Shown here in pieces: positions 12,293 through 47,549 of a stretch of DNA of 64,000 bases (its first letter is position 1; every line of letters begins with the position of its first letter). Origin of the DNA: a virus; IMG/VR virus record IMGVR_UViG_3300035670_000083, positions 1-64,000 of that record; one strand, written 5' to 3'. Made by a program: the position numbers and the translations under genes. A model generated the notes under the pieces. That model ran no database searches, was not told the origin of the DNA, and saw only the letters and a list, made by a program, of their open reading frames with translations.

Positions 12293-12333
12293 TTTTAAGA
12301 ATTTATTAATTAATATATAACTTAAAATAGAAT

Positions 12334-40648: not shown

Positions 40649-40930
40649 ATGAGTACAATAACAGAAAAAAAATCAAAATCAAAAGTAGATGAAATACTTT
40701 CAAAGCCATTTAAGTTGATTCTTCACAACGATGATTATAATTCCTTCGAATGGGTAATAACTTGTTTGATTAAAGTTTGTGGACATGATCATCAACAAGC
40801 TGAGCAGTGTGCTCATATAGTTCATTTTAACGGTGAATGTGATGTTAAAAGAGGTGATTATGAGAAACTATCTGTGATGAAGGAGAAATTACAGAATGCT
40901 GGTTTGTCAGTTACTATAGAATCAAATTAG
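40649..40930 (+). CDS. clpS: ATP-dependent Clp protease adaptor ClpS
   Basis: LILHNDDYNSFEWVITCL..VCGH...QAEQCAHIVHFNG...VK.G. Confidence 0.9.
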   Translation: MSTITEKKSKSKVDEILSKPFKLILHNDDYNSFEWVITCLIKVCGHDHQQAEQCAHIVHFNGECDVKRGDYEKLSVMKEKLQNAGLSVTIESN

Positions 40931-40951
40931 TAAAGTATATCAAGAAATAGA

Positions 40952-40982
40952 CTGAACCTCACATTACATATACATCTTGTTA
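40952..40982. repeat. Site S0: truncated attC-like site (right arm only)
   Basis: CTGAACCTCACATTACATATACATCTTGTTA is nearly identical to the right arm of S4 (43349-43379). Confidence 0.7.
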
Positions 40983-41117
40983 TATTCAGTAATTTTTAAA
41001 TTATTTTCAAAAAATCGTTTTTTTTTTTTATTAATATATAGAATATAAATATTATCAGAAGAAATGAAAAATGTAAAACTATATAAAGTGGATACGTATT
41101 AATTTTTTTATTACACA

Positions 41118-41160
41118 TAACGTTCCGATTATTTGCGTTCGGTGGGGCGTTACACCACCA
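41118..41160. repeat. Site S1: degenerate attC-like site (left core only)
   Basis: TTATTACACATAACG is identical to the approach to S9; no matching right arm. Confidence 0.55.
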
Positions 41161-42017: not shown

Positions 42018-42065
42018 TAACGTCCGATGATAAACAATCGCTTTAATGTTGTTTATCATTTGTTA
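42018..42065. repeat. Site S2: attC-like hairpin
   Basis: TAAC-GTCCG-ATGATAAACAA-loop-TTGTTTATCAT-TT-GTTA; perfect 11 bp stem. Confidence 0.9.
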
Positions 42066-42143
42066 TATTCAGTTAAATTTTTTCAATTATTTCAAAAAAC
42101 CGTTTTCTTTATTAATATATAAAAGAAAAATAATATTAAAACT

Positions 42144-42818
42144 ATGAAACATATAAAAAAATATGAAACTTTTCTAGAAAAAAAATGGATACTAGGAATA
42201 AATGAAAACATTTTTGATAAAATTGAATCACTAGTTAAGGGAAAATCAGACTCTGGTAAAATTATATCCGAATTCTTAACTAAGAACGGAATTAAAGAAA
42301 CTGGGACTGCATATTCAATTCTCTATTTGGGCGGTGCTAATCCAGGCAAATCCGAATTAAGTCACCCATTTGATTATTTACATTATACACCAGGTATCGC
42401 TAAGATTACAGAAGATGGTGTTTTAGTATTAAATGATGAAAAATCTAAATCATTAAAAACACCAGATACATTATCATTTCTAGCAATTATTGAAAAAGAT
42501 GATATTGTTAAAAATTGGACATTTGGATTAAAACAAGGGTGTAGTGTAAATAAAAATGATTATACTTTTGATTTAACAAAGGATATTTCAACTCTAACTT
42601 TTAAAAAATCTATGTGGTCAATGTTGAAACAAACTTGGATTAAAGGAGAAGATGAAGTTGTAGAACTTGATAATGATATTACTGAACTTAAAGAGGAAGA
42701 TACTATATCCTTCAAAACCCCTATGAATATGATAACTCTACAACAATGGGTTGATAAGTTGAATGAGACAGGATGGGTTAAAGAAAATAGTAAATATTTT
42801 AAAGAATATATAAAGTAG
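42144..42818 (+). CDS. Cassette gene, hypothetical, MKHIKKYETFLE leader
   Basis: Single ORF between S2 and S3 with own TAATATATA (42113-42121). Confidence 0.75.
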   Translation: MKHIKKYETFLEKKWILGINENIFDKIESLVKGKSDSGKIISEFLTKNGIKETGTAYSILYLGGANPGKSELSHPFDYLHYTPGIAKITEDGVLVLNDEKSKSLKTPDTLSFLAIIEKDDIVKNWTFGLKQGCSVNKNDYTFDLTKDISTLTFKKSMWSMLKQTWIKGEDEVVELDNDITELKEEDTISFKTPMNMITLQQWVDKLNETGWVKENSKYFKEYIK

Positions 42819-42901
42819 GCAATAATCCACAAATAAAAAACACCAATTCGTTAAGTGAAATTGATTATTTTATATCCACAATTGGAAAACGAAACAGAAC
42901 T

Positions 42902-42949
42902 TAACGGTTGAGAATATGTGTTCGTTTTAATGACACATATTCTTTGTTA
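42902..42949. repeat. Site S3: attC-like hairpin
   Basis: TAAC-GGTTG-AGAATATGTGT-loop-ACACATATTCT-TT-GTTA; same geometry and nearly the same loop as S2, different stem sequence. Confidence 0.9.
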
Positions 42950-42975
42950 TATTTAGTATCAAAAATTTTATACAA

Positions 42976-43218
42976 ATGAAAAAATGTAAATGTATTAAAG
43001 AATCTTCTTGGTTTTTAATTGATGATTCCTTCGATAAGAATTCTAAATTAAATGGTGGTGGATTTTCTTTTCAAGTAGGTAGTGAATATGATTATTTTGA
43101 AGAAGATACACCATTTGGAAATGGTATGTCGGTTATCCATCCTAAACATGGGAAAGAAAATCCTACTGGTTTTGATGAAAGAAGATTCTACGAACACTTT
43201 GAAATAATAAACTCATAA
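42976..43218 (+). CDS. Cassette gene, hypothetical 80 aa
   Basis: Single ORF between S3 and S4. Confidence 0.7.
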   Translation: MKKCKCIKESSWFLIDDSFDKNSKLNGGGFSFQVGSEYDYFEEDTPFGNGMSVIHPKHGKENPTGFDERRFYEHFEIINS

Positions 43219-43236
43219 AATTTTTGATATTGAACC

Positions 43237-43379
43237 TAACGATACTCAGATATATTTAGGTTTTCTTTTTAATGTAGTGTGAGATTTGAAACACTACCTG
43301 TCAATATACCAACAAACTCTATTAGAAGCACTTACCTTCAATTAACCACCGAATCTCACATTACATATACACCTTGTTA
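43237..43379. repeat. Site S4: chimeric attC-like site
   Basis: Left 37 nt identical to S6 left arm; remainder is a different hairpin (GTAGTGTGAGATT...AATCTCACATTAC) ending ACATATACACCTTGTTA like S8. Confidence 0.8.
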
Positions 43380-43488
43380 TGTGTAGGTGTGATTATTTAC
43401 CACCAAACTCTATTCGGAGAACTGAAAGAAAATTTTAGAAAAAAGAAGGGAGGGAAATTTAATTCAGAATATTTTATATATATCATCT

Positions 43489-44304
43489 ATGATACTCAAA
43501 TTTAATCAGTTTATAACTGAAAGACTTTCCTATTCTGAAGATGTTGAGATGATCTCAAAGATTATAATTGAATACTTATATGGTAAAGAAAACTGGGAAT
43601 CAGAAGAAGTGATAAAAATAGATAATTCGGTTATAAATGAAGTAAGAATACAATTCATAGATAATTTAAGTAAGTTAGGAAAAAAATCATCATTTAATCC
43701 AAATAAATCAGATTATAATAATCGTATGATATTTTTAGAATTTGATCCAGATGAAATCACCGAAGGATTGTTAAATCATGAAGTATTTCATGGGTGGGAA
43801 TGGATTCGAAATGAAGGAAAACATTTAACTAATTCTTTTCAATTCGCAATTATTCAATTAAATAATTACTTTGAAGAAGATGAAAACATATCTGAAATTA
43901 TTCAACTATTTTATTTAATGTCAGATGCTGAAATTAGATCTCATTTAAATAGTGATATATTTGAATTTAAAAGATGGAAAGAGGATAAAAATACCACTTC
44001 GATGGAAGAAATAGATTTATTAATAGAGGAAACAGATACATTTCAAAATTATCAATTTGTGAAAAAATTTAATCTAAACGAATATTTAAATAAATTGAGT
44101 ACTGAGAAATTAGATGAATTTATATCAGCAGTTGAACAAATGAAGTATATGAAAGATGGTGAAGAGTCTGAAATTATGGTGAAGAGATTTTCTGATTTAG
44201 AGAGAAGTAAATTTATACAAAAGTTAAATATTATACACAAACAACAAAGTGAAAAAATTACTAAATATTTAGGAAAATTAATATTATATTTCAGAAACTC
44301 TTAA
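43489..44304 (+). CDS. Cassette gene, putative zinc metallopeptidase with MILKFNQFITE leader
   Basis: LNHEVFHG (HExxH) plus downstream DAEIRSH glutamate. Confidence 0.6.
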   Translation: MILKFNQFITERLSYSEDVEMISKIIIEYLYGKENWESEEVIKIDNSVINEVRIQFIDNLSKLGKKSSFNPNKSDYNNRMIFLEFDPDEITEGLLNHEVFHGWEWIRNEGKHLTNSFQFAIIQLNNYFEEDENISEIIQLFYLMSDAEIRSHLNSDIFEFKRWKEDKNTTSMEEIDLLIEETDTFQNYQFVKKFNLNEYLNKLSTEKLDEFISAVEQMKYMKDGEESEIMVKRFSDLERSKFIQKLNIIHKQQSEKITKYLGKLILYFRNS

Positions 44305-44345
44305 ATTTTTTTTAGAAAAAATTTATTTGATACATTTTTAATTAC

Positions 44346-44353
44346 TATATTTG
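44346..44353 (+). promoter_or_regulatory. Bacteroidota-type -7 promoter element
   Basis: TATATTTG 20 nt upstream of ATG 44373; TTTG at 44326-44329. Confidence 0.6.
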
Positions 44354-44372
44354 CGTATATAATAAAAATAAA

Positions 44373-44626
44373 ATGGAAAATCTCAAACAAGAAAATAACT
44401 ACGAAAAATTTGTTATCAGACAGAAGGTGGTTGGGTATTAAAAGAAGGCGTGGCTAAAAAGGAAGAGATAAGTTTTTTTGTTGTTAGTCCTGATGGTAAA
44501 GAACTTACTTGTTTAGATGGTTCAAATATATTCTCTTCTGTTGATAAATCTGATTTGTTAGAATCGTTTAATATGAGGTTTAAAACAAACTGTGTTAGTG
44601 TAGAAAGACCAAATGTTTTTGAATAA
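44373..44626 (+). pseudogene. Frameshifted cassette gene (about 84 aa if repaired)
   Basis: MENLKQENNYEKFVI then one base missing near 44418, then TEGGWVLKEGVAKKEEISFFVVSPDG...RPNVFE*. Confidence 0.6.
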
Positions 44627-44652
44627 GAAAATAATTGAAAAATAATTCAATA

Positions 44653-44732
44653 TAACGGTTGCAAATATGAGAAGTAAATTTTTTCCATAAAAAAATAGAA
44701 AAATCAAAATTTATTTCTTATATTTGTTGTTA
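44653..44732. repeat. Site S5: attC-like hairpin
   Basis: TAAC-GGTTG-21 bp stem with two G:T pairs-TT-GTTA. Confidence 0.88.
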
Positions 44733-44758
44733 TATTTAGTAAAAATTAATTTATACAT

Positions 44759-44938
44759 ATGAAATACGAAGCACTTAAAAAAGAATATTATGCAGTTTAT
44801 GAAAAAGAACCAAGACACCAGAATGAAAAGAATGGTGTGATACTTGCACCATATAACACGAAAGAAGAAGCTGAACAAGCGAGAATTAAATATGGTTATA
44901 GTGATGATAACTACTATGTTGATAAACTCATAAATTAA
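44759..44938 (+). CDS. Cassette gene, hypothetical 59 aa, absent from the ORF track
   Basis: MKYEALKKEYYAVYEKEPRHQNEKNGVILAPYNTKEEAEQARIKYGYSDDNYYVDKLIN fills the S5-S6 interval. Confidence 0.7.
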   Translation: MKYEALKKEYYAVYEKEPRHQNEKNGVILAPYNTKEEAEQARIKYGYSDDNYYVDKLIN

Positions 44939-44951
44939 TTTTTATTGAATA

Positions 44952-45073
44952 TAACGATACTCAGATATATTTAGGTTTTCTTTTTAATATATACTAAAAA
45001 CAATTTATGAAAGATAATAAACACATAAAAAGTTTCAACGATCATCAAGAAAACTTGAATATATCTGATGTTA
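44952..45073. repeat. Site S6: attC-like hairpin with promoter and gene start in the loop
   Basis: TAAC-GATAC-TCAGATATATTTAGGTTTTCTT...AAGAAAACTTGAATATATCTGA-T-GTTA; 22 bp stem, two G:T; TAATATATA at 44985-44993, ATG at 45007. Confidence 0.9.
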
Positions 45074-45288
45074 GTGGTAGTGAAATATTAAAATATCTTG
45101 ATGATAAATATCATGTAAAAGATAATCTAATGATTGTTGGTAGATTTGATAAGAACAAAAAATATAATTATATTCAATTGTCTAATGAAATATCAAAGGT
45201 ATTTGGTTTGTCAACACAACAATCATTAGATTTAGTAGAAAAGTGGAAAGATATTAGATTTGAGAAAATTATGAAAAATAGATTTTAA
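45007..45288 (+). CDS. Cassette gene beginning inside site S6
   Basis: MKDNKHIKSFNDHQENLNISDV-SGS...; the Val codon is the GTT core. Confidence 0.75.
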   Translation: MKDNKHIKSFNDHQENLNISDVSGSEILKYLDDKYHVKDNLMIVGRFDKNKKYNYIQLSNEISKVFGLSTQQSLDLVEKWKDIRFEKIMKNRF

Positions 45289-45302
45289 TATTTAATTATC
45301 AC

Positions 45303-45350
45303 TAACGTCCGATGATAAACAATCGTTTTAATGTTGTTTATCATTTGTTA
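45303..45350. repeat. Site S7: attC-like hairpin
   Basis: Identical to S2 except one loop base. Confidence 0.9.
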
Positions 45351-45461
45351 TGTGTAGGTGTGGATTATTTACTACTAAACTTCAATCGGAGAACTGAACA
45401 AAAATTTTAAAACAAAAAGAAGGGTGGGTTTTTTAATCTTACTATTTATATATAAAAGAAA

Positions 45462-45890
45462 ATGATGAAAGATTTGAGACAGTTTATTAAAACAACCATA
45501 CGTGAGTTTTTGAATGAAGCATACATTGATGAGGATGGTAATTTAAAAGACTTTAATGATAAAATATTCTATGATTTTGATAAAATTAAAAAGTTTGTAG
45601 ATTGGTTTCAAAGTGAATATAGTGATTATACTCATAAACAGGGTTGGTCTATATTCGATTCTGATACAGAAGCACCTAATGAAAAATATCATAGTGAAAG
45701 AACTTTTAATGGTAAAAAATTGAATGGATATTATTGGCAAGTTCAAAGATTAGATTCACCAAGTGATGACGAAGCATTATTTGGGAAATTACCAAATGAT
45801 TATAAGGCTGATGATTTAGCAAGAAAGTTAGGTTTAATGGTTGATGAATACGGTGTGGTTTATGGTTGGGATGGACAATCTTTTTTATAG
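45462..45890 (+). CDS. Cassette gene, hypothetical, MKDLRQFIKTTIREFLNE leader
   Basis: Single ORF between S7 and S8 with TTATATATA upstream. Confidence 0.75.
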   Translation: MMKDLRQFIKTTIREFLNEAYIDEDGNLKDFNDKIFYDFDKIKKFVDWFQSEYSDYTHKQGWSIFDSDTEAPNEKYHSERTFNGKKLNGYYWQVQRLDSPSDDEALFGKLPNDYKADDLARKLGLMVDEYGVVYGWDGQSFL

Positions 45891-45960
45891 TGTGTGGGAT
45901 TTTTCTTTTAAAATTTTCAACCGAAATATTGATTAGAACGATGAATGGAACACTTACACA

Positions 45961-46050
45961 TAACGGATGGGTGTATATGTAGGTTTTTTAACTTTAAAAT
46001 TTAATATATACTTATGAACTGAATAAAAAACTTACATATACACCTTGTTA
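45961..46050. repeat. Site S8: attC-like hairpin with TAATATATA in the loop
   Basis: TAAC-GGATG-GGTGTATATGTAGGTTTTTTA...TAAAAAACTTACATATACACC-TT-GTTA; 21 bp stem, one G:T. Confidence 0.9.
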
Positions 46051-46081
46051 TGTGTTAGTAAAAAATAAAAGGAAAAAGAAT

Positions 46082-46387
46082 ATGAAAAGATTAAAATACA
46101 TTAAAAGATTCAATGAATCAAATGAAATGGATATTGAAATTGAATTAATTGGTCCTGATATAGATGATATTTTAGATGCAATTAACTTCATAAACAATAA
46201 CTATGATGTGAGTGTAAATCCAACAGATTTTCAAGAAGGTTCTGATATGCCTTATGCTCATAAAAGAAATCAAAATTATTCAATTTTTGTTAAGTTAAAT
46301 CCTAGTGGTGATGAAAAAAGTCATATCAGATTTATTAATGATTTGTTGGATGAAAACGGATTCTCTTGTAGGTTGTATATGATTTAA
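46082..46387 (+). CDS. Cassette gene, hypothetical, MKRLKYIKRFNES leader
   Basis: ATG at 46082 preferred over the GTG at 46052. Confidence 0.75.
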   Translation: MKRLKYIKRFNESNEMDIEIELIGPDIDDILDAINFINNNYDVSVNPTDFQEGSDMPYAHKRNQNYSIFVKLNPSGDEKSHIRFINDLLDENGFSCRLYMI

Positions 46388-46414
46388 TGATATTATTTAT
46401 TTTCTTATTACACA

Positions 46415-46544
46415 TAACGATACTCAGATATATTTAGGTTTTCATTTTTAATATATAAACAAAAATAATTTAACAACATGAAAAGTTCAAATAATGTAAA
46501 AAGTTTCAAAGAGTTCAATGAAAACTTGAATATATCTGATGTTA
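46415..46544. repeat. Site S9: attC-like hairpin with promoter and gene start in the loop
   Basis: Same family as S6 with compensatory change (TTTTCATT/AATGAAAA versus TTTTCTT/AAGAAAA); TAATATATA at 46449-46457, ATG at 46478. Confidence 0.9.
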
Positions 46545-46708
46545 GTGATAGTTTTTTGTCACCCGAAGAATTTTTAATTGATTGGGAAGGTAAAGATGAT
46601 TCAACACACCCCAATCAAGATATTAGAGACGAATGGACTAAAAGAATTAATCAATTAAAAATTTATTCAAAAATGGTTCTTGATAACACTTTAAAAAATT
46701 ATCACTAA
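46478..46708 (+). CDS. Integrase-proximal cassette gene beginning inside site S9
   Basis: MKSSNNVKSFKEFNENLNISDV-SDS...; its stop TAA is part of the terminal TAAC core. Confidence 0.75.
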   Translation: MKSSNNVKSFKEFNENLNISDVSDSFLSPEEFLIDWEGKDDSTHPNQDIRDEWTKRINQLKIYSKMVLDNTLKNYH

Positions 46709-46745
46709 CTATATTATATATGTAATGACCTATAAATAATTGATT
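46706..46745. other. Site S10: candidate attI-like primary integration site
   Basis: Last TAAC core, followed by T rather than G and by no hairpin; 36 nt before the integrase ATG. Confidence 0.6.
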
Positions 46746-47549
46746 ATGAATGAAAAGGGTAAGTCAACTTTAAAGATTTGTGAACAAAAACTTAATTATC
46801 TAAATTATTCTAAAAGAACGATTGATAATTATTTATCACATATTAATAGATTTTTAAAATCACAAAATAAATCATGTTTGCATTTATCATCTAATGATTT
46901 TCAGTCATATTTAGATAATTACAAATTTACTTCTATATCGCAACAAAACCAAGTTATTAATTCTATTCGATTTCTTTATAAAGAAGTTCTCGGTAAAAAG
47001 TATGATAAAGTCTCTTTCAAAAGACCTAAATCTGAAAAGAAACTTCCACAGGTTATAGATGGTGATTATATAAAATCACAATTATCTAAAATTGATAATC
47101 TTAAACATAAGGCAATCCTCACACTAACATACTCGGTTGGATTAAGGGTTTCTGAAATAACCAATCTTAAAATTGAAGACATTGATTCAAAAAGAATGAT
47201 CATTCATATAAAAAATGCAAAAGGAAAGAAAGATAGGATTGTTCCACTTTCTGAAAATGTTTTAAATTTGCTTAGATATTATTGGAAACAATATAAACCA
47301 AAAGAATACCTTTTCAATGGATTATCCGGTAGATATTCAATTCAATCCTGTCAGAAAATATACAAAAAATATATTGATGAAAAATCATCATTTCATACAT
47401 TAAGACATTCTTCATTTACTAATTTACTTGAGTCAGGAACAGATTTGCGGATAATACAGAAAATAGCAGGTCATTCAAGCTCAAAAACAACCGAAATATA
47501 TACTCACGTTTCAAATCAAATTTTAAGGAAAGTTAAATTACCCATCTAA
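46746..47549 (+). CDS. Tyrosine recombinase, integron-integrase-like but without the IntI insertion
   Basis: SAM-like N-domain (YSKRTIDNY, SISQQNQVINSIRFLYKEVL), KKLPQVI, catalytic GLRVSE, AKGKKDR, HTLRHS, AGHSS, TEIYTH all intact. Confidence 0.92.
   Translation: MNEKGKSTLKICEQKLNYLNYSKRTIDNYLSHINRFLKSQNKSCLHLSSNDFQSYLDNYKFTSISQQNQVINSIRFLYKEVLGKKYDKVSFKRPKSEKKLPQVIDGDYIKSQLSKIDNLKHKAILTLTYSVGLRVSEITNLKIEDIDSKRMIIHIKNAKGKKDRIVPLSENVLNLLRYYWKQYKPKEYLFNGLSGRYSIQSCQKIYKKYIDEKSSFHTLRHSSFTNLLESGTDLRIIQKIAGHSSSKTTEIYTHVSNQILRKVKLPI

Follow-up and report, generated by a model that had tools for sequence, protein, structure and literature searches.

The window analysed here is the first 64 kb (64,000 nucleotides, nt) of the virus record IMGVR_UViG_3300035670_000083, a single-contig genome of 100,284 bp with 28% G+C. 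It is a phage genome, as shown by its genes for a large terminase, a DNA polymerase, and a UvsX-like recombinase. Between 40.95 and 46.71 kb, small open reading frames (ORFs) of the + strand, none with a Pfam match, form a row in which hairpins bounded by TAAC and GTTA are situated between the ORFs, and the row ends 37 nt upstream of a tyrosine recombinase gene (46746–47549, + strand). The window contains 10 such sites in tandem, the relatives contain up to 19 per locus, and the cassette ORFs are directed toward an attI-like site at the recombinase end of the array. The G:T pairs of these hairpins, together with their folding energies and the position of their bulges, point to the TAAC...GTTA elements as the attC-like sites of a phage integron-like cassette array, used as folded single-stranded DNA of the + strand, which has the sense of both the recombinase gene and the cassette ORFs. 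We put the probability of this reading at about 0.8.

The recombinase comprises 267 amino acids (aa), matches PF00589 and PF13495, and is Xer/IntI-like. The integron-integrase model TIGR02249 matches it in two stretches with 160 bits, against a cut-off of 265, and the alignment with VchIntIA (2a3v) is likewise split into two stretches, whereas that with the archaeal XerA (4a8e) runs in one. The split match below the cut-off and the one-piece XerA alignment indicate that the recombinase lacks the IntI-specific insertion; its 267 aa compare with 315 positions in TIGR02249 and 320 aa in the VchIntIA chain. The scores of the NCBIfam XerC and XerD models for this protein lie far under their cut-offs. 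Xer/dif chromosome-dimer resolution, which utilizes a single duplex dif-type site, does not fit the multi-site array.

A megablast search with the array gave no match among GenBank phages, and the relatives were reached solely via a search with the recombinase protein. In a viral contig collection, 210 relatives were confirmed and 80 of their loci were analysed, with recombinases 60–84% identical to that of the window on contigs mostly of 50–360 kb. Hairpins were sought over the whole 100,284-bp genome with a strand-neutral rule that penalizes G:T and A:C equally, and since the reverse complement of TAAC...GTTA is the same motif, a single pass serves for both polarities. Seven intact hairpins were found genome-wide, all within 42018–46544; since these array sites are the only ones in the genome, a dispersed element of the repetitive extragenic palindromic (REP) or miniature inverted-repeat transposable element (MITE) type was rejected. 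Sites b (41118) and e (43237), which are degenerate or composite, failed the scan and are excluded from the counts. The same scan on the 80 viral loci yielded 401 sites, 318 of them unique, and 380 of the 401 are located upstream of the recombinase. In some related viral contigs (L006, 18274–20606; L069, 8947–11608; L058, 12264–13168), another array with this polarity is located several kb beyond the recombinase on its downstream side.

In an earlier note on this DNA, the non-Watson–Crick pairs of the inner stems S5 (two), S6 (two), S8 (one), and S9 (two), here sites f, g, i, and j, were all described as G:T on the + strand, and the count obtained here is the same, seven G:T against no A:C. 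A G:T is also present beside the core in each of the seven intact sites, and in most of them a 3-nt bulge is followed by another; in and beside the stems, the window holds 19 G:T and no A:C on the + strand. Taken by itself, the window gives modest statistics (7:0, p = 0.016; 5:0, p = 0.06 with the homologous sites g and j collapsed). The inner stems of the 318 unique viral sites contain 5102 Watson–Crick, 456 G:T, 44 A:C, and 73 other pairs. When these sites are collapsed to 132 sequence clusters, 206 G:T and 34 A:C distinct events are counted, and by cluster the balance is 101 to 4 (p about 1e-25). The outer arms of the viral cassettes, described below, contain 182 G:T against 6 A:C.

Folding both strands with DNA parameters, a check proposed in the earlier note, gives a more stable + strand at all 10 sites of the window. 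The same holds at 287 of the 318 unique viral sites, with a mean difference in folding free energy of −2.07 kcal/mol. Furthermore, a bulge of 3–4 nt is situated on the 5′ arm of the recombinase-sense (+) strand at 393 of the 401 sites. Because the G:T bias, the folding-energy bias, and the 5′-arm bulge all agree, the + strand would be the strand that folds, as had been claimed from the window alone. The compensatory change described between S6 and S9 is also present, stem position 21 being T–A in g and A–T in j, and is uninformative on which strand folds. GC skew gave no signal for the direction of replication; it follows gene orientation, and no argument from leading and lagging strands is therefore possible.

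The wobbles are fixed design features and not drift. The stems align without gaps over 11–26 bp, and the only unpaired bases are those of the 3–4 nt bulge on the AAC-bearing arm. In the site class of 85–93 nt, compensatory changes are observed at 15 of 17 predicted inner-stem pairs, while stem position 13 is G:U in 94 of 96 sequences (in the window, 45982:46032 and 44674:44714) and stem position 8 in 53 of 96. Beside the core, a G follows TAAC in 97% of the viral sites and a T precedes GTTA in 98%.

The outer arms are inverted repeats at the two ends of one cassette and measure 15–26 bp in the window. Position 11 from the core G had been reported as G:T in five clear outer-arm pairs of the window; all five hold, and two weaker pairs bring the count to seven of ten cassettes. 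The five arms lie on the + strand at the starts of cassettes d>e (42946–42971, pairing with 43215–43240 over 26 bp, with G42956:T43230 at position 11), f>g (44729–44754 with 44930–44955, also 26 bp; G44739:T44945), g>h (45070–45094 with 45282–45306; G45080:T45296), and h>i (45347–45361 with 45950–45964; G45357:T45954), and at the start of the last cassette (46541–46558 with 46692–46709; G46551:T46699). In a set of 184 unique cassettes with end repeats of at least 10 bp, position 11 is T:G in 159 of 161 cassettes, and the neighbouring positions use all four Watson–Crick pairs. Of 11 positions, 8.96 are paired between the ends of one and the same cassette; with shuffled partners the figure is 5.67, and between the left and right flanks of a single site it is 5.69. 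The outer helix is therefore cassette-specific, and it forms only when the cassette's own ends meet or the cassette is circularised. For the window cassettes, the + strand of the circle junction folds with −16 to −27 kcal/mol, which is 2–5 kcal/mol better than the − strand and 1–9 kcal/mol better than the same site in its array context.

When the outer 5′ arm and the inner 3′ arm are aligned on the wobble T, both display the element A-T-T-n-c-n-t-A-T-A with identical spacing. In both inverted copies of this 10-nt element, the first T is the one that forms the wobble with G, and its offset is identical. With this anatomy, the folded + strand would resemble an ordinary tyrosine-recombinase core site composed of two inverted 10-nt arms and an 8-bp central region, the latter containing two more wobbles and the 3-nt bulge.

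In the window, the sites are lettered from the distal left end of the array, all on the + strand. At this end, a half-site (40951–40983) directly follows a ClpS-like gene (40649–40930) and consists of the inner 3′ arm ATTACATATA..TT-GTTA only, 91% identical to the right half of site e. A cassette end ATTACACATAAC, whose left flank fits the ATT-N-TAAC consensus, is then followed by the degenerate site b, which has no proper hairpin (41106–41122). Sites c (42018–42065) and d (42902–42949) are short hairpins; in c, the G:T pairs 42022:42061 and 42026:42060 flank a 3-nt bulge, TCC, at an 11-bp stem, and the corresponding pairs of d are 42906:42945 and 42910:42944. A third short hairpin, site h (S7 of the earlier note; 45303–45350), is 98% identical to c, with both flanks different. 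In these 48-nt sites, the 11-nt loop TCG(C/T)TTTAATG (42037–42047, 42921–42931, and 45322–45332) is nearly invariant and common to many relatives, and the A-T of the inner-arm element lies unpaired within it. Site e (43237–43379) is a composite or fossil made up of a g-type left arm joined to the right-hand portion of an i-type hairpin, and its surviving inner stem (about 43273–43287 with 43352–43366) retains the AGT/ATT wobble. Around the fusion point (43237–43384), the g-type left arm and the start of its loop pass into the i-type 5′ arm where TTTTTAAT meets GTAGTG; the arrangement looks like a deletion that took out a cassette.

The remaining sites have longer stems. The stem of site f (S5; 44653–44732) comprises 21 bp, of which positions 8 and 13 are G:T (44669:44719 and 44674:44714), and the site has further G:T pairs at 44657:44728 and 44661:44727. 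Site i (S8; 45961–46050) also has a 21-bp stem, with the conserved G:T at position 13 (45982:46032), and its loop contains a promoter-like motif at 46002. Site g (S6; 44952–45073), with a 22-bp stem, has its wobbles at 44972:45057 and 44974:45055, and site j (S9; 46415–46544), with a 23-bp stem, at 46435:46528 and 46437:46526. The loop of g contains the promoter-like TAATATATA (44985) and the start of an ORF at 45007–45288, and that of j contains a promoter-like motif (46449) and the start of an ORF at 46478–46708. In both (44952–45090 and 46415–46552), the loop contains, besides the promoter-like motif, a start codon with about 25 codons; translation runs through the right arm and the GTTAG core, and the two ORFs have a common N-terminal peptide up to ..ENLNISDVS, diverging exactly past the core. 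The motif, a T-rich stretch with TAATATATA about 22 nt (20–25 nt) before many start codons, occurs on both strands in about 36 copies genome-wide (for example at 12311, 14430, 18894, 28619, 51395, 54248, and 63208 in the window) and is probably a phage promoter with very short leaders.

The crossover had been placed in the left-hand TAAC, and the homology breaks between relatives bear this out. In six distinct site pairs whose right flanks are identical (1.0) and whose left flanks differ, the hairpin is the same in all six and identity starts at TAAC. Conversely, in pairs with the same left flank and a different right one, the hairpin differs in 17 of 18 and identity stops at TAACG. These flank swaps assign the hairpin to the right-hand ORF and the crossover to the left core. 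Nine looser pairs (right-flank identity 0.85–0.91), in which the hairpin is different or only intermediate, probably share just a conserved promoter and leader family.

The attI-like site proposed at 46706 is recognized here as a junction (46698–46725, + strand) where a cassette end, ATTATCACTAAC, is followed by the conserved TATATTATATATG, and it recurs upstream of the recombinase in relatives. In most of 52 distinct upstream sequences, a cassette end of the form ATT-N-TAAC is followed by TATnATATAT about 35–45 nt upstream of the start codon. A second, inverted binding arm was looked for at this site and can be seen in some loci (TATATGTAAT), but not consistently. The conserved TATnATATAT may simply be the recombinase promoter; in the window (46710–46722), it resembles the genome-wide promoter motif and may double in that role. 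IntI cuts the attC bottom strand in 5′-AAC-3′ on the 5′ side of the fold (Nivina 2016, PMC5027507); because the AAC lies on the 5′ arm here as well, calling the + strand the bottom strand, as read from attI, is apt.

From this anatomy, a pathway can be proposed in which the folded + strand would rebuild a tyrosine-recombinase core site, whereas on the − strand each wobble would become an A:C mismatch, the fold would be about 2 kcal/mol weaker, and the marks would be lost. If the recombinase acts as IntI does on the bottom strand of attC and as XerCD does on folded DNA of the CTX phage, it would cut the 5′ arm between TAA and C. The single strand would be exchanged with the double-stranded attI-like site, between TAAC and TATnATATAT, just upstream of the recombinase gene, and replication would resolve the junction. 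The hairpin would move with the right-hand ORF, and each cassette would bring its own promoter in or beside the hairpin.

Several points weigh against folded + strand DNA as the substrate. That the substrate is single-stranded DNA is something we infer from the sites, and the recombinase lacks the IntI insertion that the survey in PMC8138268 calls essential. The unpaired bases are located on the arm carrying the cleaved AAC, whereas the extrahelical bases of classical sites are on the opposite arm. In the short 48-nt sites, the strand difference is small (−0.33 kcal/mol) and the inner-arm wobble is absent, and the crossover is resolved to the shared 5-nt TAACG, not to a single phosphodiester bond. 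In addition, 276 of 283 phage cassettes have + strand ORFs, so that the folding strand is also the mRNA strand, and the argument from bacterial relatives given below assumes that homologous sites work alike.

A conventional recombination on double-stranded DNA, possibly through extruded cruciforms, is considered unlikely. In such a scheme, the asymmetry between the ATT and ACT arms would set directionality and the G:T pairs would be a by-product. It would suit an Xer-like enzyme without the IntI insertion and the duplex form of the site, where the core is flanked by inverted 10-bp elements with spacers of 11 bp on the left and 8 bp on the right, and unequal arms do set directionality in other tyrosine-recombinase sites. 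However, it does not account for covariation at variable positions over 20–25 bp, beyond the 10-nt element, for cassette ends that complement each other rather than the neighbouring flank, or for G:T at non-conserved positions such as stem positions 7–12. In addition, the crossover falls at the core with the 11-nt spacer, and a spacer of this length is unusual for a duplex site.

The hairpins could instead be RNA structures only, serving as mRNA stabilisers or in processing or translational control, with any recombination being double-stranded. This carries a small probability. G:U in RNA is as acceptable as G:T in DNA, read-through transcripts could hold both arms, and the phage cassette ORFs lie on the folding strand, with one doubtful reversed cassette among the 283; the phage data alone are therefore compatible with an RNA role, and the earlier note's own caveat that G:U pairs in mRNA would give the same bias is not removable within the phages. 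It is answered by the bacterial relatives. In 12 bacterial loci, the recombinases are 42–52% identical to that of the window and also lack the IntI insertion; three of them score 226.5, 225.4, and 211.4 bits with NF040815 (cut-off 220), two reaching the cut-off. The hosts include Flavobacterium cheonanense, Arundinibacter roseus, Pseudopedobacter, Desulfitobacterium, and Nitrospirae metagenome-assembled genomes (MAGs). Their arrays are located downstream of the recombinase, and the sites, with TAAC-GGTTG and with stem positions 8 and 13 as wobbles, use the other strand. In 29 of 31 cassettes, the ORFs run antisense to the strand that folds, and on this antisense strand G:T exceeds A:C by 48 to 10. 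Because the bacterial bias lies on the antisense strand, it follows the site and not transcription, which argues for a DNA feature.

Further observations speak against a purely RNA function. The left arms of g, i, and j are upstream of the cassette's own promoter-like motif, and since this motif lies in their loops, a transcript from it would not contain the left arm. The outer arms pair only between the ends of one cassette, with an invariant wobble at a fixed distance from the crossover, and the positions of the wobbles match the two-fold symmetry of recombinase sites, with the crossover at the centre. Rfam, searched at E ≤ 1, returned no relevant family, and a scan for the terminator consensus flagged none of the hairpins. 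As for the bacterial arrays themselves, examples are L151 (9862–12279), L159 (10650–15186), L101 (9732–16334), and L132 (11003–16393), the L-numbered arrays coming from Flavobacterium cheonanense, Arundinibacter roseus, Desulfitobacterium sp., and a Bacteroidetes MAG; the NF040815-type recombinases have N-terminal extensions and comprise 344–558 aa.

That the bias is an artefact of mutation or composition in a coding strand rich in G and poor in C has a negligible probability: the GC skew of the array + strand (+0.13 to +0.33) goes in its direction, but base composition gives an expected G:T to A:C ratio of just 1.28:1 and chance inverted repeats in the + coding blocks of the window genome contain 25 G:T and 27 A:C, by which such a bias is excluded, and the wobbles are position-specific and the bias falls on the non-coding strand in the bacterial relatives.

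Returning to the folded + strand as the substrate, a more specific proposal concerns how the strand is chosen, and it is advanced tentatively, at less than even odds. Strand choice would be set by wobble geometry, with the insertion-less recombinase reading a T:G at the same offset in each arm. If this is true, excised circles would be far better substrates than resting array sites, because the strong outer arm requires the cassette's own ends to meet. Transcription or the replication of the phage could license cassette movement, as it is the non-template strand that folds. Wobble reading would then replace the classical solution of extrahelical bases and an insertion.

Like classical integrons (IntI1, and VchIntIA of Vibrio cholerae), the phage array has imperfect hairpins with AAC/GTT cores bounding single-gene cassettes. 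TAAC and GTTA match the RYYYAAC and GTTRRRY-type cores, the stems of the seven intact window sites covary, loop length varies widely, and an attI-like site lies beside the recombinase gene. In both systems, the favoured fold carries on its 5′ arm the AAC where the crossover takes place, the hairpin stays with one cassette, and the favoured strand is richer in G:T. The principle of a G:T excess on the recombined strand is already known for classical attC, whose bottom strands have 1.24 G:T pairs, as opposed to 0.39, and a folding advantage of 2.12 kcal/mol (PMC5027507), close to the 2.07 kcal/mol found here.

There are, however, significant differences. The phage recombinase lacks the IntI insertion, and the phage stems have no extrahelical bases but a 3-nt bulge on the AAC-bearing arm. 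The phage wobbles are position-fixed (94/96, 159/161, and 97–98% beside the core), and the cassette ends bear inverted repeats of 14–26 bp. Classical cassettes are promoterless and read outward from a promoter at attI/intI, whereas the phage ORFs point to attI and are inverted relative to the site, which makes the coding strand the one that folds and gives every cassette a promoter of its own; the replicon that carries the array is a lytic-type phage. In the literature searched, no description was found of wobbles position-fixed in both arms, of the absence of extrahelical bases together with that of the IntI insertion, of unpaired bases on the cleaved arm, or of long cassette-specific end repeats, nor, for such sites, of ORFs inverted relative to the site or of a phage replicon.

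The nearest precedent for an insertion-less enzyme acting on a hairpin is CTX-phage integration at dif. There, an Xer-type enzyme utilizes a strand-specific hairpin with an irregular centre that mimics a duplex core; XerC/XerD exchange one strand pair between the folded single-stranded phage DNA and the double-stranded dif, and replication is thought to finish the process (PMC3442271). In that case, a whole phage genome enters one chromosomal site by means of host enzymes, whereas here a phage enzyme serves a cassette array of many sites. Qi et al. 2023 (PMC9892861) described integrons and attC clusters (CALINs) in phage genomes, with cassette-type sites in virulent phages, one of them a Polaribacter phage; they were found by classical attC models and tested with IntI1, and the word stems Flavobacter and Bacteroid and the name Cellulophaga have no match in the text of that article. 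The NF040815-type arrays of Bacteroidota, Nitrospirota, and Desulfitobacterium have the same site grammar and an insertion-less recombinase, and differ in that the array is downstream of the recombinase and the ORFs are opposite to the folding strand, which is the classical polarity. IntegronFinder 2.0 detected almost no integrons in Bacteroidetes (PMC9024848).

In the cultured Polaribacter phages Freya_1 to Freya_10 (genomes of 43,978–48,920 bp), the integrase is 37% identical to the window recombinase; Bartlau et al. 2021 give it only as a sign of a temperate lifestyle (PMC8776804). Compared with Freya_1, Freya_10 carries about 5 kb of extra modules. The insertion begins after ...TTTACAAC, before a G, and ends with ...ATTGTTGCTAAC, followed by ACCCC, beside the integrase. 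Within this insertion lie three hairpins, one 188 nt and two 124 nt long, with the larger unpaired stretch on the 5′ arm, and these hold six G:T and no A:C. Freya_1 and Freya_10 (L001, 1–4147; L083/L084) belong to one phage species and differ by multi-gene modules inserted at a (T/C)AAC core beside the integrase.

The central problem in the mechanics of integrons is how a recombinase selects one strand of a hairpin, because this choice fixes cassette orientation. In classical integrons, the strand is chosen through bulged bases read by a dedicated protein insertion. Here, fixed G:T wobbles apparently solve the problem in the absence of both. Large phages of Bacteroidota-type hosts commonly carry the system, as the 210 confirmed relatives indicate, and it is also present in bacterial genomes, which are largely missed by standard integron definitions. 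The finding predicts which oligonucleotide strand would be bound, which bases should be mutated, and where the cut would fall, and the Freya phages, whose modules differ at the same AAC core, provide cultured material for the system.

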